NCBI GenBank assembly: GCA_041398725.1
Contig: JAWKUE010000003.1
Span: forward strand, 339,263 to 403,262
Reading direction: 5' to 3'
From: Planctomycetaceae bacterium
Lineage (GTDB): Bacteria > Planctomycetota > Planctomycetia > Planctomycetales > Planctomycetaceae
Length of the DNA stretch: 64,000 nucleotides
Below are positions 25,066 to 53,231 of the stretch, piece after piece. Made by a program: the position numbers and the translations under genes. The notes under the pieces were generated by a model that saw only the letters and a program-made list of their open reading frames with translations, ran no database searches and was not told where the DNA came from. Numbering within the stretch: position 1 is the stretch's first letter; every line of letters begins with the position of its first letter.

Positions 25066-26046
<981 letters not shown>

Positions 26047-26057
26047 GAGTCTTTGAA

Positions 26058-27632: not shown

Positions 27633-27637
27633 CAATT

Positions 27638-35871: not shown

Positions 35872-35956
35872 GATTTGTCGGAAAGAGCAGGGCATCTCGG
35901 GGCCACCTGTGTGCCTGATCGTTGCTTTCTGCAAACAAAGCGACGTCACAGAATGC

Positions 35957-36307: not shown

Positions 36308-36336
36308 GATATGTCTCCTGCCAAAGGAAATCCGCG

Positions 36337-36396
36337 GACCATTCTCGTCCAGACCATTCTCGTCCAGACCATTCTCGTCCAGACCATTCTCGTCCG
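36337..36396. repeat. Tandem 15-bp repeat (GACCATTCTCGTCCA) x4
   Basis: Four head-to-tail units, the last ending in G. They lie 30 nt upstream of the RNase start and in frame with it, reading LDENG x4 on the minus strand. Confidence 0.95.
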
Positions 36397-36430
36397 GATC
36401 AAGGGTTCACAAAGTGAATGCCACACGCAC

Positions 36431-37708: not shown

Positions 37709-38029
37709 AGAACGCCGTGCGTAAGACCGCTGCGACTGGGCAATCGGTGATACACGCGAAACGCGGATCTTAGACTGGCATCGACGAACGACACGTTCCG
37801 CTGCTCGAACATGGCCCGCAGCACACCGGAATCTATTGCATTTCAAGGCAGGAAGCGAGTGTCGCAAAATGCAGAGTAGGGCAGGGGAGCAGTCGCGAAT
37901 TTCGGTAGGTCCAGCCTGCCGGGCTGGACTTTCGCCGTCAGGCGAACCACAAGAGCGGACGTCCGCTCAACATCGACGTGTTGCCGTTCGAGAAATACGG
38001 ATCAGGTCGCAGGTTGCAGCAAGCTGCAA

Positions 38030-38089
38030 AGTCCTTTCCGGCAGAAAAGGACCTACAAAACACAGTCCTTTCCGGCAGAAAGGACCTAC
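38030..38089. repeat. Two tandem copies of a 26-27-nt hairpin unit
   Basis: AGTCCTTTCCGGCAGAAA(A)GGACCTAC occurs at 38030-38056 and 38064-38089. Each forms a GTCCTTT/AAAGGAC stem. They lie in a divergent intergenic region. Confidence 0.85.
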
Positions 38090-38438
38090 TTTGACAACCG
38101 TCCGCGACTGCACTCGCAGGGCAGGGCAGGGCGACACGTTGCATCGGATACAAAAGCATACGAATCGCGAGCGTCAGGGCATCAGTCCTCCGATACCCGG
38201 GCACGCGAATTTCTGAAGAAGTGCGATGCCGTGTCGCAGTCCCCCCGGTCCAGTAGCATGTGGCTGTGTGGCTGGATAGAATCTAAAGACAACGCCGCTT
38301 GACGTTCCAGGATCGCAATTCCGGGCGATTTTTACCGAGACGCAGGTGGGTGCGGACTGCTGTAGTTTCAGATAGAACGAACATCGCCGCAGAAATCTGT
38401 CGACAGATTTTTTTTGCGGTTGGCTGTGGAGAATAAGA

Positions 38439-39032
38439 ATGGCTGAAGCATCCGATGATCTGAATGACCGGCTGACGCGTGAATTTGCCAGACGCGAAAA
38501 GAAGACGAAGCAAGTCTCGGTTCAGTCAAATGCTGAATTGATGATCAGGGATTCCGGTGAACCAGCGCCTGCGTCAGGCACATCGACTCCGACACCATCG
38601 GCCAGTGACGTGGAACGCGATCAGATGGGAATGATCAACCGCCTGCGTCTGCGAAATGCTGAGTCTGCTCATCAGCTCGAACGAGCTCGACTGGCATACC
38701 GCACAGAAATGCAGTTGATCACACATCAGTCCGATGCGGCGATCCGCGAGAGTCGCGCTTTCTGGGATGCCAAGTCCGTTGAAGTCGCAGAAACCATCAA
38801 GACCTACGTGCAAGCCACAGTCCGGGCACTGGAAATCGATCGGCTGGATTCCCGAAACGCTGATATTCAGCGTGCCTACGAAGTTGCAGCCGCCGCCCTT
38901 GAAAACGCCAGGACAGCAAAACTTCCGGAAGTGCTGAAGGATCGATTGATACAGGATGTGCTCGACAACTTCGAAAGAACATTGTCGCGGATTCAGAATG
39001 ATACCATCGTTTCAAAATATGACCTGGATTAA
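38439..39032 (+). CDS. Hypothetical coiled-coil protein
   Basis: This 197-aa ATG ORF is charged and heptad-like over the last 130 aa or so. I recognise no family. Confidence 0.5.
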   Translation: MAEASDDLNDRLTREFARREKKTKQVSVQSNAELMIRDSGEPAPASGTSTPTPSASDVERDQMGMINRLRLRNAESAHQLERARLAYRTEMQLITHQSDAAIRESRAFWDAKSVEVAETIKTYVQATVRALEIDRLDSRNADIQRAYEVAAAALENARTAKLPEVLKDRLIQDVLDNFERTLSRIQNDTIVSKYDLD

Positions 39033-39147
39033 ATTCCGGTTGCACGTCTGTTTCCAGACGACCGCAGCGGCTGGTCGCTCCACCTGATATTTCCGCGGCT
39101 CAACGGCATGCACGACAGCCCCGAGGCTTCCTTCTTTTCTGTCAGAT

Positions 39148-39972
39148 ATGGTTCAGGAACCCAAAACCACAGATCATGAGACTGACGATGAATCACCGAA
39201 CGGAGTGATTCTCGTGGTGGTCGGTTTGTTCCTGTTTATTGCCGGCGTGGTTGTCGGCGCGATGTTGTATGCCTTTGGCCTGGCCGGGAGAAAATTCGAC
39301 GTTTCGCTGCTGCAAAGTGGCCTGGTGACGTTTGGCATTATCGCACTGGTTGTGGCTCTCGGTGTGACGGTGATGACGGCACTGATCAAATTGCTGTCGG
39401 TTGTCTGGCCTGGATCACTGAAGATCTGGTCTGAAGTCCGCCTGCTGCGCAGCGCAAAAAAGAACACACTGTCGCTCCTTGCGCGTCGGCACGAACTGCA
39501 GGAGGAACGCGCGCGGTTGACTGCCAAAATGCAGGCAACCTATGTGATGGAAAAAGAATCGGCAAAGGTCGCCAACCAGCAGGCGCTGCAGGAACTTCGC
39601 GGAGCCCTTCAGATTTCGATGGTTCGCAGCTGCGAAATTGTATTCGAACATTTGAATCGCACGTTGAATCAATATCATGAGTTAATTGCTGAAATTGAAG
39701 CATCGCCGCTGTCGGCCGTCGAGAAAAAACAATTGCTCGACGCACTGAGTCAAAAACTGAATGCCGAATCGCTTGAGCAGAAAAAACAATCAGCTCAGCA
39801 ACTGATGGAATCGGCCATTTGGGAGATTCGCTTCAATAAAGCTCGCATGCTGGCAAAGCGAAAAACAAGTGCCGCGATCGACTACCTTCGAAAAATTCGT
39901 CAGCGCACTGAAAGCCATCGAATTCTGCTCAAGATCGACGCCCTCATCCACGAACTGACAACGCCCGTATAA
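39148..39972 (+). CDS. Hypothetical membrane protein (2 TM) with a long coiled-coil tail
   Basis: Two TM helices (VILVVVGLFLFIAGVVVGAMLYAF and LVTFGIIALVVALGVTVMTALIKLL) precede about 180 aa of coiled-coil-like sequence. It is on the same strand as, and 115 nt after, the previous ORF. Confidence 0.5.
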   Translation: MVQEPKTTDHETDDESPNGVILVVVGLFLFIAGVVVGAMLYAFGLAGRKFDVSLLQSGLVTFGIIALVVALGVTVMTALIKLLSVVWPGSLKIWSEVRLLRSAKKNTLSLLARRHELQEERARLTAKMQATYVMEKESAKVANQQALQELRGALQISMVRSCEIVFEHLNRTLNQYHELIAEIEASPLSAVEKKQLLDALSQKLNAESLEQKKQSAQQLMESAIWEIRFNKARMLAKRKTSAAIDYLRKIRQRTESHRILLKIDALIHELTTPV

Positions 39973-40172
39973 CACCGATACAATACAGCAATTGCAGATT
40001 AGAGGTGCCATGCACTGAGATGACACGCCAAACAGACACGTGTGACAAAAGTAGTCATCACTCTCTGAGTGATGAATTGCGATTGAGAATGGCCGCATTT
40101 TCCGAATCCGTCATGCTGAAATTGAGGGTGACATGGACTTTTGTCGCACGTGTCCAAACAACAAGGATTGCA

Positions 40173-40724
40173 CTACGCCTCACTTCTGAGCTGCTGCAAT
40201 AAGTCGAAGGTACCGTGTTTAATGGTCCAGAGAGTCATGTATTCCCAATCGAGCTTCGCAAGCTGCACTTGAAGAACTTTTCTTGCGTCGTCGATGTCCT
40301 TTTCGCGATGCCATCTGAGCTTTTGGATGATGACATCTTCCGGGGACGGAACTACCACTGTGACTTTGAGTTCAGGAAGCACAACACTCCGGCGTCGAAG
40401 AAAACGTTCCCGGTGATGTTCGTCACTTCCTAAACGAAACAACACTATGTCAAACTTGGTCGGTACATGCGTGAGTATGTTTCTGATTGTTCCCGTCAGA
40501 GTTTCGAAAGTCATCTGCATGTCGATTCGGAATTCCTCGTCGAGACTCTGTCGAATTCGTTTGAGATCTCCTTCGGAATACGCAATTTCAATATCGGCAT
40601 CTTTGGTGGCGCGAGGATAACTGTAGAAATTGCTCGAAAACGAGCCGACGAGCATGTACGGAATCTCCAACGTCTGGAGTGCCTGCTGAACGCTCGCCAG
40701 CGCTTCGAAACTATTTTTCGACAT
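40173..40724 (-). CDS. Pol-beta-superfamily nucleotidyltransferase-fold protein (toxin-like)
   Basis: It has the minimal NTase motif LVGSFSSNFYSYPRATKDADIEI (G-S..D-x-D). The C-terminal helical part has EDVIIQKLRWHREKDIDDARKVL. Start set at ATG 40724. Confidence 0.6.
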   Translation of the reverse strand: MSKNSFEALASVQQALQTLEIPYMLVGSFSSNFYSYPRATKDADIEIAYSEGDLKRIRQSLDEEFRIDMQMTFETLTGTIRNILTHVPTKFDIVLFRLGSDEHHRERFLRRRSVVLPELKVTVVVPSPEDVIIQKLRWHREKDIDDARKVLQVQLAKLDWEYMTLWTIKHGTFDLLQQLRSEA

Positions 40725-40989
40725 CAGTCTCCGCCATACCGCAATTCCTGTAGAGCCCATGGTCGTCGATTCGACGAACAATCTCTTTGCGTCGTTCGAT
40801 TTCTGCGTCAATTTGCTCCACAGAAAAATCCGGGTTTTCAGCGCGAATTGCCATCGTTAGCCATCGCATACCTTCGTCATACAAATCAGCACCGCCGCGT
40901 AATCGCTCCACATCGGTCAGCGATTGGCTGCGATCAATTTTCGATCTGGCGATCGAGTCTTGTAATGCACGTGTGGTGTGGTCAATCAT
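40711..40989 (-). CDS. Small hypothetical protein, putative partner of the NTase
   Basis: This 92-aa ORF has its stop overlapping the NTase start by 14 nt, an arrangement typical of two-gene toxin-antitoxin-like cassettes. Confidence 0.45.
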   Translation of the reverse strand: MIDHTTRALQDSIARSKIDRSQSLTDVERLRGGADLYDEGMRWLTMAIRAENPDFSVEQIDAEIERRKEIVRRIDDHGLYRNCGMAETDVEK

Positions 40990-41157
40990 TTAAGAGAGCT
41001 GTTGCGTTTCGATTAGTTTTACGAAAGTGTGCCAACAATCTTCCGACATACTTTTCGCGCGTAGAATTTCCAGACAAAAATCTTTGACAGCGCGTTGTGT
41101 TTTGGGAGTATAGCAAAGAACCAACACGTGTTGAACTGCGCACCGCTATGGAACATT

Positions 41158-41346
41158 TCGCACCAGCTTTTGCTGCATTCATTTAAACGCTTGCGGCCTG
41201 AGCCTGGCGTTAACAGCCAGAATACAACGCATTGTCCGCCCGAAGGTGGAGCTACGAACCGAAATCATTGCTTCGTTGTCTGGACATATGAATCGCCGCC
41301 GAGTCTGAATACCATGCAGAAATCCCCTGCGATTTTGTGTCTCTTC
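41158..41346 (+). repeat. 189-bp non-coding repeat, copy A (direct repeat of 42477-42666)
   Basis: It aligns end to end with copy B with scattered substitutions (roughly 85-90 percent identity by eye). The substitutions fall at all codon positions of every frame, which argues against coding. Confidence 0.85.
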
Positions 41347-41634
41347 GTGTTTTTCGTGGCCAGCAAAACTCAAGCGGCGCGTGGCAGGTTTTCCAGCCAC
41401 AAAGACACTCAAGAAGGCACAAAGGGGACGTTGTATTGCTTGACAGGGTGTCGAATTCGAATTGCAACCGTTTAATTCATCGCCCGTAAATCGCGCCCTT
41501 TGGCACAAATTTTGACCGAGTCCCGGAGCGACCAACGCAGTCGACTCAGCAAAGACTATCGTTCCGGAGAAATCAATGCCATTCGTTACAATGTTCGCTA
41601 CAATCGCTCCGGATATTTCGCTTAGGAGCCATCC

Positions 41635-42405
41635 ATGCCGCTACACGACTGGTCTCGGGTTGAATCCGGAGTTTTTCACGATTTCCACACTGTCTGGATT
41701 GCAGAAATCCGGAACCGGCTCAATGCAGGACTATTGCCCGAGAACTACTATGCGTTGGCTGAGCAGCATGCCGGAGAGTACATCGCTGACGTACTCGCGC
41801 TGCACGTCCCGCCGAGAGCGGACGAACAGAGTCGCTTCGACGAATCGAATGACGAATCGGGCGGAGGAACAGCGCTCGCAGAAGCGCCGCCGAAAGTGGC
41901 TCAGCATGAAACGATTGAACTGGATATCGTCGAGATACAGCGATTCCTGTCGATTCGACATCTCAGTTCACATCGAGTGGTCGCGTTGCTGGAGATTGTT
42001 TCGCCGGGAAATAAGAATAATCAGGCTCGCTATGATGCATTCGTACATAAGACTGTCGCTGCGGTTCGTCGCCGAGTGAACGTGTTACTCGTCGATGTGC
42101 ATAAGACGGGCAAATTTGATCAGGATGGAATCAACGCCTGTATTCGAAATATTCTGTCACCACATTCGAAGCCAATTATCGACAAACCCCGTCATTCAAC
42201 ATTGGCCTCCTATTGTCCTGACCCGCCGCGATCGCTGGATATCTACCTTGAACATGTTGCTCCCGATATGCCGCTGCCCGACATGCCGATCTTTCTGAAC
42301 CCGGACCGTTATGTCAACGTACCGCTTGAGGCCACGTATCTGGAAGCATGGAACGGGATGCCCGACTTCTGGAGGAACGTCGTGCTGGGAAAACCGCTAC
42401 CATGA
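41635..42405 (+). CDS. DUF4058-like protein
   Basis: The N-terminus MPLHDWSRVESGVFHDFHTVWIAEIRNRLNAGLLPENYYALAEQ follows the DUF4058 pattern (W..FH..LI..I...L...LP..YYA..E). Length is 256 aa. Confidence 0.6.
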   Translation: MPLHDWSRVESGVFHDFHTVWIAEIRNRLNAGLLPENYYALAEQHAGEYIADVLALHVPPRADEQSRFDESNDESGGGTALAEAPPKVAQHETIELDIVEIQRFLSIRHLSSHRVVALLEIVSPGNKNNQARYDAFVHKTVAAVRRRVNVLLVDVHKTGKFDQDGINACIRNILSPHSKPIIDKPRHSTLASYCPDPPRSLDIYLEHVAPDMPLPDMPIFLNPDRYVNVPLEATYLEAWNGMPDFWRNVVLGKPLP

Positions 42406-42476
42406 ACCGTGCAGATTTCGATTCGGACTCTGCACCACATCCCGTCAAATAAATGAAACCATCGCCAGCGTTTTTG

Positions 42477-42666
42477 TCGCATCAGCTTTTGCTGCACTCA
42501 TTTAAACGCTTGCGGCCTGAGCCGGGCGTTCACAGCCAAAATACAAAGCATTGTCCGTCCAAAGGTGGAACTACGAACCGAAATCCATGCTTCGTTGTCT
42601 GGACATATCAATCGCCGCCGAGTCTGGACACCATGCAGCAATGACCTGCGATTTTGGTGTCTCTTC
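42477..42666 (+). repeat. 190-bp non-coding repeat, copy B
   Basis: See copy A. It has the same orientation and lies 71 nt after the DUF4058 stop. Confidence 0.85.
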
Positions 42667-42695
42667 TGGGGATCCACGGAGCCATGCACCGAAAT

Positions 42696-43223
42696 TTATG
42701 TGCGTCTGGCTGGTCGAAACTTTCGGATGCGGCGGCGTTCTTCGCGGTTCAACGGGATGTCAAAGACGGAGGGGTCGAACTCGGTTGCGTGACGCACCGA
42801 TTTGCCGTGCTTTTCACGCAGCTCACGATAGTGAGATTTCAAACGTTCTGCGTAGGCTTTGTCTCGTACCACCATGTCAGCCCAGAAATCCAGGAGCTCT
42901 GCAGCATAGGATGACTGCGTGTGGAATGGGTCCAGAAAAGGATTGGCAAATTCTTCGTTCGTCATGCGCCAGACTTCGTCCGCGCCAGAATTCCATGTGT
43001 AACTGATGGTGGCGACTTCACGCGGATGCTGATCAGATTCGGACTTTGCGTGCAGGACTTTGATGATCACTCGCTCGCAATTGCAACTCAGGTCCGTGCA
43101 AAAGTATTCCATGAACAGGAACGCTCCCACGGGTATGGTTTCGCCACCTTCTGGAAGTATGGCCGTTCGCAGTTCCGTTTTCGTCTTCCGGGGAAACGCT
43201 TCGAAGTATCCAATGACTGACAT
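42696..43223 (-). CDS. Hypothetical protein
   Basis: This 175-aa ORF starts at ATG 43223 (MSVIGYFEAFPRK..) and has a CTDLSCNCERV motif. I recognise no family. Confidence 0.5.
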   Translation of the reverse strand: MSVIGYFEAFPRKTKTELRTAILPEGGETIPVGAFLFMEYFCTDLSCNCERVIIKVLHAKSESDQHPREVATISYTWNSGADEVWRMTNEEFANPFLDPFHTQSSYAAELLDFWADMVVRDKAYAERLKSHYRELREKHGKSVRHATEFDPSVFDIPLNREERRRIRKFRPARRT

Positions 43224-43239
43224 CTTATTAAAGTCCTTT

Positions 43240-43422
43240 TCAGTAAGCACAAGTAAGCGCCAAATTGCTTTCAATCGTTTCGCCATGGTGCTTTTCGGCG
43301 ATGATGTGATCTACTTGACACCCGTAGAACGTATCCGATTCACTGATACGGCAATACTCGCATCTACCTGCAGCGCGTTCGATCACCAGGCGGCGAAGAT
43401 CAGTCGAAATTTAAGACGTCAT
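43240..43422 (-). pseudogene. HNH endonuclease, disrupted
   Basis: Its ATG overlaps the upstream stop (ATGA), but codon 4 is TAA. The rest reads ISTDLRRLVIERAAGRCEYCRISESDTFYGCQVDHIIAEKHHGETIESNLALTCAY-stop. That is an HNH core (C.YC...DHI....G....NLAL.C) ending just before the expected CN..K. Confidence 0.55.
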
Positions 43423-43652
43423 TCGGAGACAAGTTTCCGAGCTTTGGCCTTTGCCAATCTCATGATGTGCTCAACCTGCAAGAAGTGATCAAGCTCAGAG
43501 CGTTCTTCCACAGTAAGCTCGGAAGCTTTCTCACGGGCGATCAAGTCAGCCACGCGGTCTTTTGATTCCGGTGAGGGGCAAAACAATGCAACGGTCTGCG
43601 GAGTTGTCCCAGATGCAATGAAGTCTACGATGTCAGAGTATGCTCGGCTCAT
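43419..43652 (-). CDS. Small antitoxin-like protein
   Basis: This 77-aa ORF (..LTVEERSELDHFLQVEHIMRLAKAKARKLVSE) resembles small addiction-module-component-type proteins. It is translationally coupled to the HNH remnant. Confidence 0.5.
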   Translation of the reverse strand: MSRAYSDIVDFIASGTTPQTVALFCPSPESKDRVADLIAREKASELTVEERSELDHFLQVEHIMRLAKAKARKLVSE

Positions 43653-43789
43653 GATCGTATTTTACGGTAAATCAGAAGAAAAGCAAACAGCGTCATATCG
43701 AGCGGGATAACGACCGCCATCAGCGGATGGCTGGCGAAAAGTGTCCATGTCAAAACCGAAACGACCGCCATTCCGCTGCACGGAATTGT

Positions 43790-43936
43790 TCAAGTAAGCC
43801 GCTGTCGCGGCGGGGGTTGTCTGTGCTGAATGATACGGCGAAGTTGTAGCGTTTGGCAATGGGGACTGGTCATTCTGTCTGCTGTTGGGGCGTCACTGGA
43901 TGCTCCGTTTGTGGTTTCTGACAGAAAGACTTTCAC
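43790..43936 (-). pseudogene. Truncated paralogue of the Gly-rich protein gene at 46090-46560
   Basis: The GTG-initiated 48-codon ORF VKVFLSETTNGASSDAPTADRMTSPHCQTLQLRR.. shares its first 33 codons or so, and its upstream DNA (43840-43940 vs 46464-46565), with the 156-aa gene, then diverges and stops. Confidence 0.55.
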
Positions 43937-44420
43937 ATGGCCCCTTCTCACAACGACTCACGAAACAATAATGGCGACGATCGCAATCGCAATGCCCGAC
44001 GACGAAAGATTGAACCAGCGCACAAGGAACTGTCGGTCGCGTGGCGATACATTATTGCCTGCGATTCAGGCCCGGCGGGCCGACAAACCCAATGCCGGTG
44101 TGCGTGAGCCACCGGTCAAAAGGAGAAAGTCAGCGTTCAAGGCCCGGAGGGCCGACACATTGACCCGATCATGATGACTAATGGCCTCGCTGCTGCCTGG
44201 ACCTGTATCGCTCGGGGCGATTTGTGAACCTTCCGTCGGCCTCGTGCCGGCCGGAGGTACAACTGGCAGCTACAGAAAGATCCAACAGACTTGGGCTCTC
44301 CGTCCGGTTTACCCGGGCGGAAGCAACGTCGAACGCGTCACAAATCAGTAATTCTGAATCGTGGTGCCTGCGACGAGGTCCTGAACGGCACGAACTCCAA
44401 ACGGAGAAGAGTCGTACATG

Positions 44421-44514
44421 GCGGTAGAAAAATTTTACGGTAAAAAGATTTGACGTTCGGCATCTCTCGCAATTTTTCTACCGCGAAATTTTTCTACCGC
44501 GAAATTTTTCTACC
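44421..44514. promoter_or_regulatory. Iteron-like cluster: three direct 16-bp repeats plus one inverted copy
   Basis: CGCAATTTTTCTACC (44468-44482) and GCGAAATTTTTCTACC (44483-44498 and 44499-44514) are head to tail. The inverted copy GCGGTAGAAAAATTTT is at 44421-44436. Confidence 0.7.
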
Positions 44515-45299
44515 CTGCTCCTCATTCCTGATGGAGAAGTACACTTCATAGCGGCGTCAGAATAGCGTCGCGGGAATTGTGTCGTGGTGCATGGCACCAT
44601 GACCGTAGAGTGCATCGCATTGTGACTATATATGGATCGGTCTACGGTTGTCGTGGTCCGCGTCAGTATAGTTCAGCACAGTGAGGTTTTAGTAACGATC
44701 GACGTTGTATTGCTCATTACCGTCGTCGCTCGCCAGGATCTCACTCCGATTCGTGCGTACATCTTTCGGAAAGCGAACAACGAGAGCGGCTAATGTCCAC
44801 GAGCCGGTGGGCTCCTTCGGGTCAAGGGCTTTCAGCCCTTGTTAGGATTGTCGGGCATACTCGTTCGATCATGACTAGTGTGTCCTGTTTCGAACAAGAA
44901 CCACAGGGTCTCACTGGTTGCCTTGATGACATGATATATAGCGCGAGCGGCGAGCGACTCCGGGTCTTCTTCACAGCTGGCCGTATCGCGGCGAGAGATA
45001 TTGCCTTCCAGCGTTGAACAAACCCTGGGCAGAATCCAACAGATACAAAATTTCGGAGCTCATGTCGTTCACCGCCGGAAGGCCACTCCCGGTCGATTCA
45101 CCCTCACTACCTTTCTGTGTACGCTTCAACGAAAAATTTCGGTTACGTCGCCAGCATTACGGCTTCACGTATCCTTATAGTCTCGCTGCAACACTCGATA
45201 CGGAGCCTCCGGCTAAGAGTTACTCCGGCGGGTGTCACACCCGCTTGTCATCAAACCATTTCCAGTCCGCACGTTCACGGTTTTGTTCTGCCGCATTCA

Positions 45300-45650
45300 T
45301 CATGTGTGGCCGAATCGAACCTGCGTTTCTGTGACAACGACAAAAGCGCCTGCAATCTGATCTTGGTATCCGTCAAGAAGTTTCTCAATCGCGTCGATCT
45401 TTGATACTGCTCGTTCGTCTTGAAGCCTAAGGAAAATCACGCCGTGATGTGGGCGCTTGTCACGATAGACCTTTTCGCCAAAATCCTTATCGTTCGTGAT
45501 TATAATCCAGCGTTCCGAATATGCCTTGTCGAGAATGTCATCATCGGTCGTGGCCCTCGCTTCTTCGTAGACGGAAAAGACCTCGTGGGACTGATCCCGC
45601 AGCCAATGAGCCACGGCGGGACCCGTGCATTCATCGACAAGGAATCGCAT
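45300..45650 (-). CDS. DUF5615-family PIN-like (Mut7-C-type) putative toxin
   Basis: MRFLVDECTGPAVAHWLRDQSHEV..WIIITNDKDFGE matches the DUF5615 pattern. It starts immediately after the DUF433 stop. Confidence 0.7.
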   Translation of the reverse strand: MRFLVDECTGPAVAHWLRDQSHEVFSVYEEARATTDDDILDKAYSERWIIITNDKDFGEKVYRDKRPHHGVIFLRLQDERAVSKIDAIEKLLDGYQDQIAGAFVVVTETQVRFGHT

Positions 45651-45899
45651 TTAGCCCGACTCCGCGACCAGCGGCATGAATGATGTGCTGGACAACGATT
45701 GCGACGCAAAGAGCAGACATGCCTGTATATCTTCTGTGGTCAATCCGTCATATTCGTCGATGATGTTGGCAGCGGATGAACCGTGGGCCAGAAGATTCAG
45801 GATGAATTCGACCGTCAATCGCGTACCCTTGATCACTGGCTTGCCAACCATGACCCCTGGATCACACGTGATTCGTTCGAGCAGTTGTTGATCGTTCAT
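45651..45899 (-). CDS. DUF433-family putative antitoxin
   Basis: ITCDPGVMVGKPVIKGTRLTVEFILNLLAHGSS..IIDEYDGLTTEDIQACLLFA is the typical DUF433 core. Start set at ATG 45899. Confidence 0.7.
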   Translation of the reverse strand: MNDQQLLERITCDPGVMVGKPVIKGTRLTVEFILNLLAHGSSAANIIDEYDGLTTEDIQACLLFASQSLSSTSFMPLVAESG

Positions 45900-46089
45900 G
45901 AATTGCCTCACTCTGATGGTATTCGTTGCGGGACGCGCTGACAAGTCGAGCAACCCGACCCATGCGCGGGTGCCTGGATTGAGTGGCAGAACGTTACGGT
46001 TCAGCGGGCGGCGGCGAACGACGCGCAAGCAGACGGAAAAACTAGCCACCGCCGCTCCATTTCAACCGATGGTTCGTCGTATTCAGTGG

Positions 46090-46560
46090 TTAGTTGAGGA
46101 GTGTTGCAACACCCTCTGCGGTCAATTTGATGCGCAACTTCTTCTTTGAGATTGGGAATTGTTGTCCGTCGACAACCACCGCTCTCCCGTCGTTCTTAAT
46201 TTCCACCGTATGCTTCCCGACACGAAGTGTTGGAACATCATTTACATACTCCAAAGTCGCAGACAAGAAGGAGAACCCGCCACCGCCAAAGCTGAAGCCA
46301 CCGCCACCACCACTCGTCGTCGAAAAGCCATCTTCAACGGCGGATGGCCTGGAAACCACTATTGACCCTCCGCCGCCCCCTCCACCGGAATCTGGTGCAC
46401 GGACGTCATCAAATATGATTGTCGCACGCTCCAGGTCTAGATATTCGAGTTGAATGGTACGTTGAAGTTGTAGCGTTTGGCAATGGGGATTGGTCAATCT
46501 GTCTGTCGGTGGAGCATCACTGGATGCTCCGTTCATCGTTTCTGACAGAAAGAGATTCAC
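46090..46560 (-). CDS. Hypothetical Gly-rich protein
   Basis: This 156-aa ORF has a GTG start and contains G7 and GGGGGFSFGGGGFSF tracts. Coding status is uncertain. Confidence 0.4.
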   Translation of the reverse strand: MNLFLSETMNGASSDAPPTDRLTNPHCQTLQLQRTIQLEYLDLERATIIFDDVRAPDSGGGGGGGSIVVSRPSAVEDGFSTTSGGGGGFSFGGGGFSFLSATLEYVNDVPTLRVGKHTVEIKNDGRAVVVDGQQFPISKKKLRIKLTAEGVATLLN

Positions 46561-46753
46561 ATGACCAGTTCCAACAACAACTCATCACACAACAACGACG
46601 ACGACAACAAGAACCGCCGCGGAGCGAACGCTAAACGCCGAAAGATTGAGCCTCTTCGTAAGGCACCGGACAGCGAACGAGGGCTCACACATTCACCGTA
46701 TTTCAACGGCACGCTGTACGAACGCATGAGCCAGGATCTGCATTGATGGCTGC

Positions 46754-47394
46754 GTAGCCATCTCGCTCCGCCGAGATGAGCCTACAAGATGGCGTTTGGC
46801 TCAACAGACAAGGGCGGCCTCTCAAACAACATTCATTGACGAATCTATTGACCAGCCGACCGGGCTTACCATATTCACATGTGAGAGTCCGGGCTCATCA
46901 CAGCGGAGTGTGATGGCTACATAAGCAGAGCACTCCGCTCAGAGCTGTCTGATCGGCAAACACCGGATCCAGAGAACTGCCATCGAAATACTCATGCTGA
47001 ATGACGCCCAGGCACTACGTTTGCGAGTGCAATAGACTTGATTTCACCCGAAACGCTTCCTGACACCTTAAAGTGCTCAAAGTAGCCATCTCGCTCCGCC
47101 GAGATGAGCCCACAAGATGGCATTTGGCTCAACAGACAAGGGCGGCCTCTCAAACAACATTCATTGACAAATCTATTGACCAGCCGACCGGGCTTGCCAT
47201 ATTCACATGTGAGAGACCGGGCTCATCACAGCGGAGTGTGATGGCTACATAAGCCAGAGCACTCCGCTCAGAGCTGTCTGATCGGCAAACATCGGATCCA
47301 GAGAACTGCCATTGAAATATTCATGCTGAATGATGCCCAGGCACTACGTTTGCGAGTGCAATAGACTTGATTTCACCCGAAACGCGTCCTGAAG
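46754..47394 (+). repeat. Two tandem copies of a roughly 312-bp unit (period 328 bp), ORF-free
   Basis: 46754-47065 aligns with 47082-47394 with about 10 substitutions, mostly transitions, and one 1-nt indel. No ORF of 60 aa or more exists in any frame between 46747 and 47546. Confidence 0.9.
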
Positions 47395-47456
47395 TTCCAG
47401 GATTCAGTGTTCCCCGGCGAACAACGCCCACATTCTTTTCGGGGGGGACGGCACAG

Positions 47457-47546
47457 ATGCAGAATCATGCTCAATTCTTCGTGGGTCTGGGGACACTTTC
47501 ACTGATCAACTCTGGCTTGGCACAGTCAAAGGGTCGCAGCGGATAA
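47457..47546 (+). pseudogene. Truncated copy of the small membrane-protein gene at 51338-51535
   Basis: MQNHAQFFVGLGTLSLINSGLAQSKGRSG-stop aligns with MHNQTQFFVGLGTLSLINAGLAQSKRRCGLLWW.. in the full copy. TTA has become TAA at 47544. DNA similarity continues to about 47562. Confidence 0.7.
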
Positions 47547-47571
47547 TTGTGGTGGCTGTCCTCAAATTCCT

Positions 47572-48333
47572 CTAAAGACATCGCTCACTCAGTCGGAGTC
47601 TCACCAACAGATCGTTCAATGCGGCTGCCCCACTGGGGGTCTCCGGCAACGAGCTTTCCTCAAATGCTCTTTCAAGTTCAGTCCGCAGTCTTGCGTACTC
47701 CCGTTCATGGAACCCAAGGTCGGCTTGTTCAAGAGTTCCTTTCTCGGTGCCACTAACTTTGCGTTCAATCAGTTCGGGAATGTACGGAAGTTTGAAAGTC
47801 TCGTTCAATAAAATAAGGTTCGCTTCAATTTCACCAGCACGCATCAGATGAATTCCGGTGATCAATACTCGGTAGACGTACAGCAGCGGTTTAACTCGTG
47901 GTGGATCTTCTTTTTGGAACAGCTTCCACTGCGTGGCTGCGAAGCCGAGGTAGTGGTGAGCATGATGTTTCGTCAGACAATCGGGAGCAATGGCCTTGAG
48001 TTCTTCATGCTCCGGCGTGGTGTGGACGATCAGCGGCGAAAGTACCTGCTCCATGACGTAACCGTTCTTCTTCAGCATCAGCCCGAAGAACTTCTTAGCG
48101 TCATGGGACACGAGATCGATTTCCATGCCGTCATAGATGCCTGACTTTTCAACGGTTTCACGCCCTTCCTGAAGCCCGACAACATCCTTCAGCGGCAGCA
48201 AATGCACGCCTCGCAGGTCGAAGTCCGAATCCGGCGATGGGAAACCGTACAGGTGCGCTCCGCTGATCGTGGCGAATAGCAATGGGTAGGGATGGTCGTT
48301 GATCTGGTTATACAATCGGGGATCAATGTTCAT
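47572..48333 (-). CDS. Pol-beta-type nucleotidyltransferase (PF10127/RlaP-like), paralogue B
   Basis: It has the motif ATISGAHLYGFPSPDSDFDLRGVHLLP. Its start ATG overlaps the stop of the upstream paralogue (ATGA at 48330-48333). Confidence 0.7.
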   Translation of the reverse strand: MNIDPRLYNQINDHPYPLLFATISGAHLYGFPSPDSDFDLRGVHLLPLKDVVGLQEGRETVEKSGIYDGMEIDLVSHDAKKFFGLMLKKNGYVMEQVLSPLIVHTTPEHEELKAIAPDCLTKHHAHHYLGFAATQWKLFQKEDPPRVKPLLYVYRVLITGIHLMRAGEIEANLILLNETFKLPYIPELIERKVSGTEKGTLEQADLGFHEREYARLRTELERAFEESSLPETPSGAAALNDLLVRLRLSERCL

Positions 48334-49280
48334 GGGAGTTTCTCTGTAAGTGCGGCTCTCCGAGCCTTGAGGAGATACGCATTCGCCTTCTCGTAGTCAG
48401 GTCGTTCCGGGAGTGTGGTTTGTTCAAGTGCTTTATCAAATTCATGGTGCAGGCTGAGTCGCCATTTTTCTGTCTCGTCCCACGGTATGTCACCTCTTTT
48501 AATCGCCAAAAGTTGTTCTCGATGATTGTCAACTCGAACCGGCACGAATCCTTCTCGCAGTACGTTGATGCCTGATATCAACAGGCGAATCAGGTGCATG
48601 ACGTGCTTCCACTTGACCTGTCCCTGATTGCGAATGTCCGCCTGCATCTTTTTGAACTGCGACATGACGTACCCGTTGTACGTCTGGTAGACGAGCCGGG
48701 AGAGGAAGATGTCACGTATTCCAAGTAACTCTTCCGCCAGCGGAGTCGCTTTCTCCACCAACGGAGAATAGAGGCACTCCAGTACATTCGGGTTCGCTTT
48801 CAAAGCCAGCACGAGGAACTTCTGGATTTCCCAATAGCCTTCCTGCGTTTCATAACATTCCAGTTGCTCAGGGACTCCGTAGAGCGACCAGTGCAGGTCG
48901 GCAGGTGGCAAATAGAATCCACGGCGGTCGATGTCAGATGCGTCATCCGCCAGACCGTATGCCTGCGACCCAATGATACACTGGAAGATCACCCGCTCGA
49001 ACATCTCGCTTCCCTTAGCGGTGATGCTGGTGTCGCCGATTTTTCCTTCTTTGAATTTGGCCAGCGTCGTCAAGTCACTGGACTTGATGGCCTCTTCAAC
49101 GCCATCTGGAAAGCGAATCCGATAGGAATGGTCGAGATCGCTTGGTGCCTTAACGACAACCCCCACCGCACCTCGTGGATGCAGTGTGCGACCATTCGGG
49201 CCGACGACATCCCTGAGTGTCACGATCTGCGTGCCAGCCGCAAAGATCAAGTTGGGTTGGTAGTGGACTCGTTTAGTCAT
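48330..49280 (-). CDS. Pol-beta-type nucleotidyltransferase (PF10127/RlaP-like), paralogue A
   Basis: It has the motif CIIGSQAYGLADDASDIDRRGFYLPP and NPNVLECLYSPLV. Start set at ATG 49280, overlapping the HEAT gene stop by 8 nt. Confidence 0.7.
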   Translation of the reverse strand: MTKRVHYQPNLIFAAGTQIVTLRDVVGPNGRTLHPRGAVGVVVKAPSDLDHSYRIRFPDGVEEAIKSSDLTTLAKFKEGKIGDTSITAKGSEMFERVIFQCIIGSQAYGLADDASDIDRRGFYLPPADLHWSLYGVPEQLECYETQEGYWEIQKFLVLALKANPNVLECLYSPLVEKATPLAEELLGIRDIFLSRLVYQTYNGYVMSQFKKMQADIRNQGQVKWKHVMHLIRLLISGINVLREGFVPVRVDNHREQLLAIKRGDIPWDETEKWRLSLHHEFDKALEQTTLPERPDYEKANAYLLKARRAALTEKLP

Positions 49281-49788
49281 TGGGACCGTCTTCGCCTTTT
49301 TCGAGTTGAGACTCCCCAAGCGTCTTCAACGCACACTGGAGAGCCATGACAACATTAGAGTCATCATTGCGATGGCGTTCATACAGAGATTTCAGGTACG
49401 GCAATGCCGAACGGTCGTTGAGATACGCCAGGGCAAAGCCAGCCGCTCGGCGTACCATCATGTCAGGATCATCGACCATTTGAAGGAGATGTTCCGTGGC
49501 TGAGTAATCACCAGAATGCCCAAGAACCCCACACGCCACTTCTTGGACAAAGGAATCTGCGGATGCAAGAAGACTAACCATTTTGGGGACTAAATCTGCG
49601 TCCCGTCGATTCAGCAACGATCTCTCTGCCTTGGCTCCCAGTCCTTCGTGGGACCAGTTCTGAAGAATATCAACCAAGAGATTGAGAGGGATGTCATTTG
49701 CTCTGTCCAAAAGACCTTGCGCAGCACGAAACCTTACAACCCGATTTTGGCTGGCATACATTCGAATCCAATCGTGAATATCAGGCAT
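49273..49788 (-). CDS. HEAT-repeat protein
   Basis: It has repeated helical-hairpin units with the HEAT/PBS-lyase pattern (RFRAAQGLL.., VQEVACGVLGHSGD, MVRRAAGFALAYLND). It is the first gene of a three-gene overlapping operon. Confidence 0.6.
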   Translation of the reverse strand: MPDIHDWIRMYASQNRVVRFRAAQGLLDRANDIPLNLLVDILQNWSHEGLGAKAERSLLNRRDADLVPKMVSLLASADSFVQEVACGVLGHSGDYSATEHLLQMVDDPDMMVRRAAGFALAYLNDRSALPYLKSLYERHRNDDSNVVMALQCALKTLGESQLEKGEDGPND

Positions 49789-49948
49789 CGTGTGACGTAC
49801 CCATCACGTTCGCTCCTTTCAGACAAATCCTCTTCTCGCAGTAATGTAGCAAATAGAAAAGGCCCACACGGCTGCCTCGAACCGTATGGGCCTTCGATTT
49901 CTTTCAGAGACATTCAGTCCCTGAAAGAAGTAATCCCGGTTCACGCCG

Positions 49949-50116
49949 TCAAAAGCAGCCATTCTTGAGACAGCACTTTTTGAAGCGTTTTCCGGAACCG
50001 CAGGGGCAGAGATCGTTTCTGCCGAGCTTTTCCTCAAACACTTTGTCGCCGTGGACAATCCGTTCGCCACGCTTCACCTGCGTTTCGGACGGGAATCCCT
50101 TACGGCGTTTGCTCAT
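49949..50116 (-). CDS. Small SEC-C-motif protein
   Basis: It has the C-terminal metal-binding motif [13 protein letters not shown]. Start set at ATG 50116 (55 aa). Confidence 0.55.
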
Positions 50117-50361
50117 GGTCTCAAAAAAATGACAATTCATCGAAGTTTTCGTGATTCTGGTTTCGCATTGGACACCTCCCGTTTTGATTGAGTTGTCGGG
50201 AGTGGACACCGACTGTCTGGAAAGGTTCACAACAAACTTCTAAGAACTGAACCCATCTTCGATTGGAGTTTCAACATGGGGCTCTTATGCCTGACAAACG
50301 GGTGATAGAATGACGGCCTGTTCTTCATTCGCCTCGTAGAACTCAATTGGGCATCCCCTTC

Positions 50362-51084
50362 ATGAACGTTGTCTCTCATCATCGGAGAACTTTCTTTGCC
50401 GTCGTCTTCGCTGCACTCTTCGTCGCCGTTTCGTTTACGGCAGTTCGTGCCGACGCGGCTGTCTGGAAGTCGATCCTCGGCTGGATTGCAATAGACACGC
50501 TCTTGCTGAGCATCGCATATTTCATCAACTGGCCGGGCGTTTATGGGAAATCGGCAGTCGGTTCAATACGATGGCCAATAGTATTGTTGATGACTCCAGT
50601 CTTGCTATTCGTTCGAATCGTATGGCAGCTCCAAAACATCGCCACACGTACGCCGCTTTACAGCGAGATCGCCCCCGATTTGTTCGTCGGGAGATTGTGT
50701 AACTTCGAATCACTGCCAGAGGGCGTGTCGGTGGTCGTTGATCTCACCGCCGAGTTTCAAACTCCTCACTCGCTCCGATCGAGAGTTCAAACCATCTGCC
50801 TGCCCACACTTGATGGTTGTTCTCCGGACTGGAAGAAATGCCAGCAGGCGTTTGCGTCGATCGGAAACAACCATCATCGCATCTATGCCTGTTGTGCAAA
50901 TGGTCACGGTCGAAGTGTAACGTTCATGGCAGCATGGCTTGGTTACCACGGTAGTTGTCAATCTGCCGCTGGGGCAGTAAAGCTCATTCAAGTCGCTCGC
51001 CCTACAGCGGCACCAAATTCGGATCAGATGCGTTTTCTTACGCAAATCTTTGATACATTGCCTCAAAAGTGCGAGGAAGAATAG
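50362..51084 (+). CDS. Membrane-anchored dual-specificity / tyrosine phosphatase-like protein
   Basis: Three or four N-terminal TM helices precede the Cx5R P-loop in YACCANGHGRSVTF. Confidence 0.6.
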   Translation: MNVVSHHRRTFFAVVFAALFVAVSFTAVRADAAVWKSILGWIAIDTLLLSIAYFINWPGVYGKSAVGSIRWPIVLLMTPVLLFVRIVWQLQNIATRTPLYSEIAPDLFVGRLCNFESLPEGVSVVVDLTAEFQTPHSLRSRVQTICLPTLDGCSPDWKKCQQAFASIGNNHHRIYACCANGHGRSVTFMAAWLGYHGSCQSAAGAVKLIQVARPTAAPNSDQMRFLTQIFDTLPQKCEEE

Positions 51085-51337
51085 AATTGTGGCACTGGTG
51101 TCATAGATCGATTCCGCCACTTCGGAATGGACGTCTGACTATGAATTGCCGAAAACCATTACTATCGCTGGTTCTTTATCCAGCGTTGACCGTTGCTGGT
51201 TGCAATATTCTGCTTACCGGATCTCCAGTACCGTTCTGGCATAATTGAGTCACTTAACAATCCAGTTGCTGTTCGTTCGATCTCTCAAACGTATTTTGAA
51301 CTTGAAGATGGTCGGACGGTCCCTCTGCGTACCTCAA

Positions 51338-51535
51338 ATGCACAATCAAACTCAATTCTTCGTGGGTCTGGGGACACTGTCACTGATCAACGCTGGCTTG
51401 GCCCAGTCAAAGCGTCGCTGCGGATTATTGTGGTGGCTGTTATTGCTGTTCCTGGGACCAATTGCCACATTTTTGATCGTCGTGCTACCGCCGATCCCCA
51501 GGGCGAAACTGCCGTCATCCTGGATTCGGCTGTAA
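51338..51535 (+). CDS. Small membrane protein (PLDc_N-like motif)
   Basis: This 65-aa protein has two hydrophobic segments and WWLLLLFLGPIATFLIVVL. A truncated copy lies at 47457-47546. Confidence 0.5.
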   Translation: MHNQTQFFVGLGTLSLINAGLAQSKRRCGLLWWLLLLFLGPIATFLIVVLPPIPRAKLPSSWIRL

Positions 51536-51964
51536 CCCAATAAGAATCGTTGTTTCCAGTTTTGACGGGTCTTCACAGTGGTGCCCGTAGATTTCCAATG
51601 ACGGCGAACTGATGGTCTCGCCGCGACCAGCGAGTGCAGACTTCAGGGAAGCCCACTTGGCTGGCAACGCCTGATATGGGCCAACGTGGACGTGTTTCAA
51701 ATGGCGCTTCAAGTCAAACTCCATCGGCTCCAAGTGTTGAGGAGATCGTGCGTCCTGCAACAACTCAACGCCAACGAACATCCGATTGTCCGGCAGATAA
51801 ACCCAGTGATTAATTCCTGAATTCGCAGTATTTGACTCCTTCACGATTTTCCACATCTCGTTCATCAACTTCATGCCAACTTCGCCGAAGTTGTTGTTCG
51901 AAACTACGGAGGATAAGCCGTGAAGATGAAATCGGATCGGTGTTTCAATGATTTCGATTTCCAT
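51515..51964 (-). CDS. GyrI-like small-molecule-binding domain protein
   Basis: This 149-aa protein has the duplicated beta-alpha-beta-beta pattern and endings (..GPYQALPAKW..LEIYGH) seen in GyrI/SbmC-like effector-binding domains. The call is by resemblance. Confidence 0.55.
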   Translation of the reverse strand: MEIEIIETPIRFHLHGLSSVVSNNNFGEVGMKLMNEMWKIVKESNTANSGINHWVYLPDNRMFVGVELLQDARSPQHLEPMEFDLKRHLKHVHVGPYQALPAKWASLKSALAGRGETISSPSLEIYGHHCEDPSKLETTILIGLQPNPG

Positions 51965-52003
51965 AGAATCCTCCCTCCAACGCCTTTTAAATGCTGAACT
52001 GGT

Positions 52004-52240
52004 CTACGCTTTCTTCTTCAGTTTTACACGTTTCGCCTCAGCCTTCTCATTGTCCTGTTTGACTCGCAACCGAACGATGCGTTTGATCAGGTTAAATGGG
52101 ATCGGCTTATCCAGCGGAATTTGAAGGTTTCCTTTCGGGCCTGCGTAACGGGCCGCTGCCTTTTCAATCGCCTCATCGCCCAAGATCGGCGGGTAGAATC
52201 CGATGTGTTCTTTCCACGCAGCGAAGTAACCGAGAGCCAA
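52004..52240 (-). pseudogene. DUF1801 (YdhG-like) protein, C-terminal fragment
   Basis: YFAAWKEHIGFYPP..KGNLQIPLDKPIPFNLIKRIVRLRV matches the C-terminal half of DUF1801 proteins. The frame is closed by TAA 12 nt upstream of the TTG start, so the first 50 aa or so are missing. Confidence 0.55.
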
Positions 52241-52463
52241 CAGTGTTTACGGTTCAGATCTTAAACGAAGCAGCTTTGATGCCCGATATTCCCACTGATC
52301 CCTGACGAATACTTCTTGTCATGCGAGACCATCGCACCCGATCACGATGAAAAAGATCAAGACGTCTACTGGCTCGACAGCAGACACGGCAGTCTGCCTG
52401 GTTCGCCAGTAATGACATTGGCCCATTAGCAGCAGTGGGCGTTCAACAGGAAAAGGCGTAATT

Positions 52464-52530
52464 GTAGTGGACGAGGCCACGAGTCCCTGCCGTTTCAGGG
52501 CCGACCGGGACTCGTCGCCTTGTCCACTAC
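52464..52530. repeat. REP-like palindromic element, copy 2
   Basis: Arms are GTAGTGGACGAGGCCACGAGTCCC (52464-52487) and GGGACTCGTCGCCTTGTCCACTAC (52507-52530). The loop is TGCCGTTTCAGGGCCGACC. Confidence 0.85.
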
Positions 52531-52762
52531 CGCAAATTTTTATTTTGACGGAGCACCAGTCCTTCCTGTGCCCGTGTAGGCGCTTTGTCACCGTGTCTGC
52601 TTATTTTGCAAGTCAATGTCTGGCCAAATTGTGCACCCCAAATGCAATGCTGTGGGATCATCGCCAAAGGCAAAAGTGCCTTTGAACCCCATTAATTTAC
52701 GCGAATCCCATGAAAAAAGCCCACTTGCGATTTCTCACAAGTCGGCTCATTTCGAAAGAAAG

Positions 52763-53115
52763 TGGAGGCGGGGGGAATTGAACCCCCGTCCTGTTGTCCC
52801 ACAACCAAAGCCTCTACGTGCGTAGTTTGTTGATTATGTCGCAATGGAGAGGTTCAGCAAACAAAACCATCCATCACCAGTTCATCACAAATCTCGCATC
52901 AGCCGTAATGAACGGTTGGACTGATGCCAGCCCAAATTTGCAACCGACGGTCAGCTCCTTAGGCGGGGATCCTTAGGTCGGCACAGCTTATTTCTAAGCT
53001 GCGAGAGAGAACTGCGGTTTTGCAGTTATTGGTGATCAGCTTTTTACGAGGCCAACTGATCAACCTCGGCACGCCACCCTGATTGCCAGTAACCCAGTCA
53101 AATCCGATCGCCCCC
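52763..53115 (-). ncRNA. ssrA: tmRNA (transfer-messenger RNA)
   Basis: The 5' GGGGGCGAUCGGAUUUGAC pairs with the 3' CGCCUCCA acceptor strand, including a G3:U pair. The T-arm is GGACGGGGGUUCAAUUCCCCC. The conserved GCCGAGG..UUGGCCUCGUAAAAAGC block is followed by a tag reading frame GCA AAA CCG CAG TTC TCT CTC GCA GCT TAG (53023-52994), giving AKPQFSLAA. CCA is not encoded. Confidence 0.9.
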
Positions 53116-53231
53116 CGGGTTCGCTGATTCAGGTTCAGCATCTGTTACAGTCGGCATTCTACCCGAATGTCTTCACAGATACAGGGCGAACATCAGAAAA
53201 ATCACCGGAAGCTGAGGCGGGACTGCAAAAT

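Follow-up and report, generated by a model that had tools for sequence, protein, structure and literature searches.

Accessory DNA at the 3′ end of ssrA in a Planctomycetaceae genome: probable decayed flexible DNA at an integration hot spot

Is the DNA that abuts the transfer-messenger RNA (tmRNA) gene ssrA of a Planctomycetaceae bacterium a genomic island? The 3′ end of this gene is a known genomic-island site, as described for the ssrA islands of Dehalococcoides (PMC3146451) and in the tmRNA database paper (PMC11915505). An earlier note, made from the sequence alone, had proposed that a mosaic accessory stretch at positions 38220-52762 of a 64,000-nucleotide (nt) window (the whole stretch of DNA analysed here) might be such an island. 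We analysed this tract in its genome of origin, G000, a metagenome-assembled genome (MAG) of 5.99 Mb in 35 contigs that is 73% complete; the window corresponds to C3:339263-403262, on a 603-kb contig. With a probability of about 0.6, we interpret ~39973-52762, together with a second patch at ~31.7-38.2 kb, as decayed, non-mobile flexible accessory DNA at an integration hot spot, and not as one island.

Comparisons were made with 53 genomes of other species from the same GTDB genus, which comprises at least 53 species besides G000. Presence or absence at the DNA level was scored in five well-assembled relatives, and protein counts were made over the 53 genus genomes. No near-identical genome was among those compared, and the closest genus members share only ~82-90% protein identity with G000 in conserved single-copy genes.

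Extent and inheritance of the atypical DNA

ARAGORN and Rfam both confirmed a tmRNA gene on the minus strand, at about 52763-53115 as the earlier note had it (Table 1). On its right, the atypical tract ends sharply at the tmRNA 3′ end (~52762/52763), where GC content and open reading frame (ORF) density both shift. The GC content of 38220-52762 was 51.4%, compared with 54.7% for the genome (standard deviation 1.5% in 5-kb windows), and just 0.9% of equal-sized genome windows were lower. All 5-kb windows across 30.7-53 kb fell in the lowest 1-7 GC percentiles, and genome-typical GC resumed with the first 5-kb window past ssrA. Tetranucleotide distance lay at the 88th-96th percentile over 38-50 kb, and the proposed GC and k-mer check thus marked the tract as atypical up to the ssrA 3′ end. 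ORFs of at least 100 amino acids (aa) covered 64.5% of 38220-52762, against a median of 88.6%, with 0.3% of windows lower. Together with many dispersed repeat families, this bore out the description of the DNA as unusually ORF-free and repeat-rich. GC at third codon positions was mosaic by gene: the HEAT gene lay at the 0th percentile and the antitoxin gene at the 1st, these two falling with the nucleotidyltransferase (NTase) and DUF5615 genes within the 0th-6th, and the RlaP1, RlaP2, SEC-C and GyrI-like genes were host-like.

The two sides of ssrA also differed in gene conservation. To the right (53.2-64 kb), every gene was present in at least four of the five well-assembled relatives, and the nearest one, a membrane protein gene at 53232-53717 that served as control, was found at the protein level in 40 of the 53 genus genomes. 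At 40-52.7 kb, the relatives held scattered pieces only, and nothing except one RlaP gene was present in four or more of the five. The phosphatase gene was found in 3/53 genomes, in none of them both full-length and close, making it nearly unique to G000. Homologues of the DUF6036 NTase were more frequent (31/53), with identities of at least 45% in only ~10/53. Most genes in the tract are therefore accessory, as had been supposed.

This did not extend to the two genes at its left end, which had been counted in the accessory stretch as a pair of coiled-coil proteins. The first, encoding 197 aa, is a single-copy gene present at 74-90% aa identity in 27/53 genus genomes, most of which belong to the subclade nearest G000 by a core gene. 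The genomes scoring highest for it are largely those scoring highest for the control gene. The two genes are kept together in G010, G003 and G045 and, judged by DNA matches, in G059. Their single-copy state, the matching scores and the preserved pairing indicate that the pair was inherited vertically and does not belong to the accessory DNA. What is strictly accessory next to ssrA thus narrows to ~39973-52762 (~12.8 kb), with a miniature inverted-repeat transposable element (MITE)-like repeat at its left edge.

Nor was the atypical DNA confined to 38220-52762, as low GC and genome-unique genes run left to ~31 kb. A second low-GC patch at 31749-38216 contains an insertion sequence (IS), a gene unique to G000 and a xylose-isomerase-like gene, as well as a 116-aa RNase-like ORF, a class V aminotransferase gene and a ~230-nt repeat. 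The xylose-isomerase-like gene shows 85% DNA identity to G045:C150 and was not found in the four other relatives searched; this pattern suggests a recent transfer. A short core segment is bracketed by the IS elements at 24440-27640 (IS91-type) and 31749-33653. The window also encodes a PSCyt/DUF1553 protein and xylose-isomerase-like proteins with twin-arginine translocation (TAT) signals, a gene content that, like the nearest public records, suggests an uncultured lineage of freshwater Planctomycetaceae.

Integration at ssrA in the relatives and in G000

The ssrA gene is an active integration hot spot in this genus, because four relatives have a tyrosine integrase right at the tmRNA 3′ end. 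Three of these integrases, directly 3′ of ssrA, were detected by PF00589 (G010, E 8e-18; G063, E 8e-17; L143, E 9e-9), and the fourth, in G013, was assigned through 94% DNA identity to G010. In G010 (L036:380-1471) and G063 (L080:12076-13425), the integrase reading frame continues into the tmRNA gene, its last 23 codons being complementary to the tmRNA 3′ end. A shared post-ssrA junction, consisting of a terminator hairpin and then GTGTCACAAAGTGAC, was found in G010, G013, G063, G008 and G037, which represent both subclades. On the 3′ side of ssrA in G010, over ~39 kb, 8/49 ORFs have a G000 homologue, compared with 14/18 on the 5′ side.

DNA similarity ended at the tmRNA 3′ end, base-exact, in every pairwise comparison of seven species. 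This held even for G012 and G014, whose tmRNAs are 97% identical. In G000, the only post-ssrA sequence in common with some relatives (G039, G017, G034 and G064) is the terminator hairpin and its immediate flank at 52704-52761, after which similarity stops; this terminator differs from the G010-type junction sequence. Around a dozen MAG contigs break off no more than 850 nt from the 3′ end of ssrA. By tmRNA, the closest public records are lake MAGs labelled Planctomycetaceae or Planctomycetota (89-94% identical). A public contig search with the tmRNA 3′ 29-mer, which is conserved across phyla, gave mostly irrelevant matches and recovered four lake MAGs of the same genus. The G017 genome contains two tmRNA genes, on contigs C665 and C110, which may reflect strain heterogeneity, contamination (5%) or a duplicated ssrA.

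Searches of G000 for island hallmarks were negative, in agreement with the earlier observations that the region held no integrase and no duplicate of the ssrA 3′ end. When the genome was searched in six frames with PF00589, no integrase or recombinase was detected in 27-53 kb, and the ssrA-adjacent integrases of the relatives, used as tblastn queries, matched only the IS91 recombinase and the tmRNA overlap in G000. The sole integrase match in the window, at 25390-25872, was rejected as an island integrase; it is part of the IS91-type element with a tyrosine recombinase at 24440-27640, a second copy of which lies at C6:288.6-291.7 kb. No copy of the ssrA 3′ end was found with up to 3 mismatches in 20-25 nt, blastn-short returned only chance 9-11-mers, and none of the short tmRNA-end signatures (7-12-mers) recurred. 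The relatives' post-ssrA junction motif was likewise absent from G000.

We also compared gene order around ssrA, over 20-40 kb on each side in G010, G012, G008, G020 and G025 and over shorter or one-sided flanks in G005, G013, G014, G045, G059, G046, G063, G037, G064, G017 and L160. No empty site was recognisable in any relative, the flanks being non-syntenic in each of the ~15 species examined. No 3′ neighbour of ssrA was shared among these species except the SEC-C gene, which is found 3′ of ssrA, always in the same orientation, at 2.5 kb in G000, 14 kb in G010 and 17 kb in G045. Two conserved types of 5′ neighbour were recognised, and the subclades differ in them. One, a DUF1570 protein gene with a gene for a 179-aa protein, was present in G010, G045, G059 and L143, and L096 keeps the first of the two. 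The other, a sulfatase gene with two orthologues of G000 C11:143.6-146.3 kb, was present in G046, G063 and L160, and G037 keeps the sulfatase on a short contig.

Neither type adjoins ssrA in G000. In the closest relatives, the PSCyt and membrane-protein genes occur together and are followed by other genes, not ssrA. The G000 ssrA is thus bounded by rearrangement joints on both sides. The 5′ joint lies at 53116-53231, between the ssrA promoter and the membrane-protein gene, and orthologues of the ancestral 5′ neighbours are located in G000 at C11:143600-146300 and at C3:475100-476700, 83 kb away. The conserved gene order next to ssrA that the earlier note had named as refuting an island was not found; because gene order is scrambled on both sides across the genus, this test was uninformative.

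Compared with ssrA islands of the type catalogued by Islander, the G000 tract likewise starts at the tmRNA 3′ end and is atypical in composition, and relatives in the genus have an integrase at the same junction. It differs in having no integrase at the tmRNA-proximal end, no direct repeat of the ssrA 3′ end (attR) at a distal boundary, and indeed no definable distal boundary, and in being a mosaic that includes genus-conserved genes; as such an island it would be no more than a decayed remnant.

Genes and repeats in the tract

The features of the tract and its flanks are listed in Table 1, with Pfam matches judged against family cut-offs. Most of the functional labels given by the earlier note were recovered in this way: its NTase and small-protein pair as a DUF6036 NTase with an Rv0078B-related antitoxin, the DUF4058 gene between repeats, an HNH remnant adjoining a small ORF, a DUF433/DUF5615 pair, and a HEAT-NTase-NTase operon as HEAT-RlaP-RlaP. 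Its membrane phosphatase is indeed a membrane protein with a phosphatase-domain match, although this match falls below the Pfam cut-off, and its DUF1801 label for a 78-aa ORF was not reproduced (no Pfam match at E ≤ 0.05). Ten small ORFs taken from the ORF-poor stretches were also without a match in Pfam. The defence scan suggested at the same time, run as ten proteins against PADLOC-DB 2.0, detected no anti-phage system, the sole match being a generic HEAT-ARM one.

Table 1. Features of the tract and its flanks (window positions).
Feature	Position	Strand	Evidence or remark
IS, weak IS1380-like match	31749-33653		NCBIfam; 1.9 kb; 96% copy at C6:362.5 kb, decayed copy at C8:377 kb
355-aa gene unique to G000	33617-34684		0/53 genus genomes
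Xylose-isomerase-like TIM-barrel gene with TAT signal	34843-35871	+	Sequence match
~230-nt multi-hairpin repeat	37883-38116		~35 copies in genome
Two genes, family not assigned (197 aa; 274 aa with N-terminal membrane helices)	38439-39972	+	Earlier "coiled-coil" pair
MITE-like element, ~19-bp inverted ends	40032-40156		~27 copies; fold -30.2 kcal/mol, z -5.8
DUF6036 NTase	40173-40811	-	Pfam, E 4e-6
Rv0078B-related antitoxin	40711-40989	-	PF18993, E 3.6e-6, 27.3 bits (cut-off 27.1)
Dispersed repeat	41275-41423		Own-genome BLAST
DUF4058 gene	41635-42405	+	PF13267; within 41158-42666
196-aa protein, family not assigned	42696-43286	-	No Pfam, NCBIfam or PADLOC match
HNH remnant, 56 codons stop-to-stop, without start codon	43243-43410	-	PF01844, E 2.5e-8, 34.4 bits
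77-aa ORF just upstream of HNH remnant	43419-43652	-	ORF
Dispersed repeat	43707-44179		Own-genome BLAST
Dispersed repeat	44201-44498		Own-genome BLAST
Group II intron fragment, domains 1-4, without reverse transcriptase	44720-45297	-	RF02005, 79.8 bits at 44948-45237
DUF5615/PIN-like	45300-45650	-	PF18480, E 2e-21; PF18478
DUF433	45651-46049	-	PF04255, E 1e-22
156-aa Gly-rich ORF, doubtful	46090-46560	-	No Pfam match; overlaps repeat tract
Dispersed element	46442-46743		Multi-copy in genome
Tandem 328-nt duplication	46754-47063 and 47082-47392		~40 related copies
RlaP2	47572-48333	-	PF10127
RlaP1	48330-49319	-	PF10127
HEAT	49273-49788	-	PF13646
Small SEC-C-motif protein	49949-50230	-	PF02810
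Membrane protein with DSP/PTP-like phosphatase domain	50347-51084	+	PF00782 sub-threshold, 27.7 bits (cut-off 33.5)
GyrI-like small-molecule-binding protein	51515-51964	-	PF06445, E 7e-8
78-aa ORF, possibly truncated gene	52004-52240	-	No Pfam match at E ≤ 0.05
Repetitive extragenic palindromic (REP)-like hairpin repeat	52450-52560		>100 copies; fold -27.7 kcal/mol, z -4.55
ssrA terminator hairpin and immediate flank	52704-52761	-	Sequence, DNA matches in relatives
ssrA (tmRNA), tag AKPQFSLAA	52762-53115	-	ARAGORN; Rfam RF00023, 160.9 bits

The HEAT, RlaP1 and RlaP2 genes form a tightly overlapping operon at 47572-49788(-), with matches to PF13646 and PF10127 (E 2e-42 and 2.5e-53). RlaP enzymes extend RNA 3′ ends by one or two nucleotides and are usually found alongside RNA ligases (PMC12776372). 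Both RlaP orthologues occur together in G001, G011, G016, G041 and G044, at 81-93% aa identity; in three of these relatives (G001, G016 and G041), the SEC-C gene is linked to them. The cluster in G041 (L071:6205-14495, G041:C289) comprises SEC-C, Hen1, a small 23S-IVP protein, RlaP1, an inserted IS200, RlaP2, HEAT and Pnkp; that in G016 contains SEC-C, Hen1 and RlaP, and that in G001 contains SEC-C, a 322-aa protein, RlaP1, RlaP2 and an ADP-ribosylglycohydrolase. The neighbour of the RlaP pair therefore varies by species between Hen1, the 322-aa protein, the ADP-ribosylglycohydrolase and HEAT.

Searches by tblastn with the G041 Pnkp and the G041 and G016 Hen1 proteins revealed no trace of either gene in the window or in the assembled genome, which is 73% complete. 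The HEAT gene of G000, which lies upstream of RlaP1, is an unrelated, shorter one. At the place where HEAT-Pnkp would follow RlaP2, G000 has a repeat tract (46.4-47.6 kb). Because Hen1 and Pnkp flank RlaP in G041 and G016 and are absent from G000, the RlaP pair is what remains of an RNA-repair operon of Pnkp-Hen1 type, which G041 retains intact. The associated RlaP nucleotidyltransferases of such operons are present in G000 as two PF10127 genes, whereas Pnkp (kinase-phosphatase-ligase) and the Hen1 methyltransferase are missing. Horizontal transfer of the pair (83-87% nt identity) was considered and not adopted, since the protein products of conserved single-copy genes show 82-90% identity in these same relatives. 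Neither RlaP protein had a usable match among PDB sequences.

MenAT toxins arrest growth by extending tRNA 3′ ends and are neutralised by their antitoxins. At the left end of the accessory DNA, the antitoxin gene overlaps the DUF6036 NTase gene and lies upstream of it, and we regard these two genes (40173-40989) as a MenAT-like putative toxin-antitoxin pair. In MenAT1 of Mycobacterium tuberculosis, the Rv0078B antitoxin is paired with the Rv0078A MenT1 nucleotidyltransferase toxin (PMC10435456, PMC7450476); the likeness lies in a small upstream Rv0078B-family gene overlapping a downstream nucleotidyltransferase gene. The G000 pair differs in that its NTase matches DUF6036 and not DUF1814 (MenT/AbiEii type), its antitoxin match lies at the cut-off, and its toxicity is only putative. 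The NTase had no sequence match to any solved structure in the PDB. The DUF433 and DUF5615 genes constitute a second putative pair, of type II; they are adjacent, co-oriented and abutting, with strong Pfam matches, and show no notable difference from known DUF433/DUF5615 pairs. This pair was not found at the DNA level in the five relatives.

Among the remaining genes, DUF4058 is one of at least eight paralogues in the genome and is flanked by direct repeats of ~190 nt (41158-41337 and 42477-42656, 91% identity). The 196-aa gene is patchy in the genus, with DNA matches in G010, G040 and G041 only, and the GyrI-like gene gave weak DNA matches only, in two of the five relatives.

Own-genome BLAST revealed that the ORF-poor DNA is made of the genome's own dispersed repeats, with at least nine multi-copy families in the tract. 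Because these families are multi-copy across the genome, the tract belongs to the G000 lineage and is not a contaminant. Short repeats are stacked at 43707-44634, among them a 16-nt triplet and, at 44421-44515, an inverted copy. The repeat tract at 46442-47392 is without convincing genes and consists of units that recur through the genome at 82-97% identity. The G000 families share with MITE- and REP-type repeats a short hairpin form or one bounded by terminal inverted repeats, in tens to hundreds of copies, and differ in being genus-specific. Short repeats akin to the 52450-52560, 40032-40156 and 37883-38116 families were present in all five relatives examined. These dispersed repeats supply ample substrates for recombination.

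A group II intron fragment lies between the repeat stack and the DUF433/DUF5615 pair, and domain 5 was not detected in it. Copies of ~450 nt, 80-91% identical, are found at C6:100.7 kb and C10:368.3 kb as well as in many other genomes of the genus, and an intact group II intron with reverse transcriptase is present elsewhere in G000 (C7:392036-393477). Apart from the tmRNA and this fragment, Rfam detected nothing in the tract. Apparent repeat "junkyards" stacking the families of 43.7-47.4 kb were also observed at C10:366500-374500, C6:293400-295300, C9:80-2700 and C17:25700-27600, and some of these loci adjoin integrase or IS91 fragments.

Origin of the tract and its meaning

What remained of the idea of an island at the ssrA 3′ end is atypical, accessory DNA at a used integration site; the single island at 38220-52762 did not hold. 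The caveat that such an island might be old or decayed, or have a different boundary, proved apt, as hallmarks are missing and low GC extends beyond the proposed start. In our interpretation, the tract has no function as a whole. More than one event would have built it up, toxin-antitoxin pairs would have stabilised part of it, and erosion and colonisation by repeats would have followed. Tyrosine-integrase elements, which insert at the tmRNA 3′ end in the relatives, would have done so in G000 too, and the integrase and distal attachment (att) site would later have been lost through deletion and rearrangement. The survivors would be self-retaining or neutral cargo: the MenAT-like pair, the DUF433/PIN-like pair, DUF4058, the truncated HNH gene and HEAT-RlaP-RlaP. 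The emptied DNA would then have been colonised by dispersed repeats, the group II intron fragment and IS elements, and these repeats and IS elements may also have been substrates for the rearrangements that scrambled both ssrA flanks. Signs of decay are the HNH stub and the RlaP genes that lack Hen1 and Pnkp.

Several observations weigh against this interpretation. At 3 GC points the compositional shift is mild, and the 35% of non-coding DNA accounts for part of it. Two blocks of the tract are conserved or recurrent in the genus, namely the "coiled-coil" pair and SEC-C/RlaP, the latter in five relatives. G000 has no integrase remnant, att repeat or short signature, and the relatives offer no empty site; integration at ssrA is therefore something we infer for G000 from its relatives. 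Since ssrA has a rearrangement joint 5′ of it, its adjacency to the tract could also be secondary.

These same points lend some weight to the main alternative, possible though less likely, in which the tract is an ordinary planctomycete mosaic, one among many repeat-rich, low-GC junkyards produced when dispersed repeats and IS elements recombine homologously, and came to adjoin ssrA by rearrangement, with no integration targeted to the gene. Both ssrA flanks are non-ancestral in G000, synteny is scrambled genus-wide, neither integrase nor att site is present, several other tracts of the genome have equally low GC, and the same repeat families are stacked at C10:366.5-373.2 kb, C6:293.4-295.2 kb and C9:0.1-2.7 kb. 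Such a mosaic would not, however, account for a compositional edge that coincides with the tmRNA 3′ end, base-exact where the relatives lose similarity, or for the asymmetry between core genes 5′ of ssrA and accessory genes 3′ of it. It also leaves aside the four relatives with integrases at exactly this position and the linkage of SEC-C to the ssrA 3′ side in three species.

Two further explanations appear far less probable. A still-mobile integrative element or cassette array (similar to an integron or to a cluster of attC sites lacking an integron-integrase (CALIN), or driven by an unrecognised recombinase) could have escaped the standard hallmarks, and many small self-contained genes and toxin-antitoxin pairs separated by repeats, a repeat-bracketed DUF4058 gene and an integron-like recombinase/IS91 element 25 kb away would fit it. 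We consider this very unlikely, as the genes lie in both orientations, the repeats belong to at least nine unrelated genome-wide families and not to one junction type, the tmRNA-end signature does not recur, Rfam matches are limited to the tmRNA and the intron fragment, and no recombinase was found in 31-53 kb. An assembly or binning artefact, a chimeric contig joining foreign DNA to ssrA, is the most remote of all: the MAG is only 73% complete and ssrA flanks often break assemblies in the genus, yet the tract is interspersed with host-specific repeats, each of which has between 25 and more than 100 further copies in the genome, genus-conserved genes (the "coiled-coil" pair, RlaP and SEC-C) are embedded in it, and the contig is 603 kb long.

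Decayed flexible DNA at an integration hot spot thus remains our preferred interpretation. A more specific version of it, which we regard as unlikely, would make the tract the eroded cargo of a genus-specific ssrA-targeting family whose integrase frame ends inside the tmRNA gene (the last 23 codons antisense to the tmRNA 3′ end), with SEC-C/HEAT/RlaP/RlaP as a ligase-independent module that modifies RNA 3′ ends and both survives and functions without Hen1 and Pnkp.

Accessory DNA adjacent to ssrA is a known, ordinary kind of finding, of which the G000 tract is one more example. For annotation, 40-52.8 kb and 31.7-38.2 kb are to be treated as flexible genome and not as core, with the pseudogenes and repeat families flagged. 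Island finders based on hallmarks would miss the decayed copy in G000, and synteny tests fail in a genus with such scrambled gene order. The RlaP pair, stripped of Hen1 and Pnkp, offers a natural experiment on whether RlaP can act without a ligase. More broadly, the integrases of the relatives show that, in this uncultured genus of freshwater Planctomycetaceae, ssrA serves as an active hot spot of integration.

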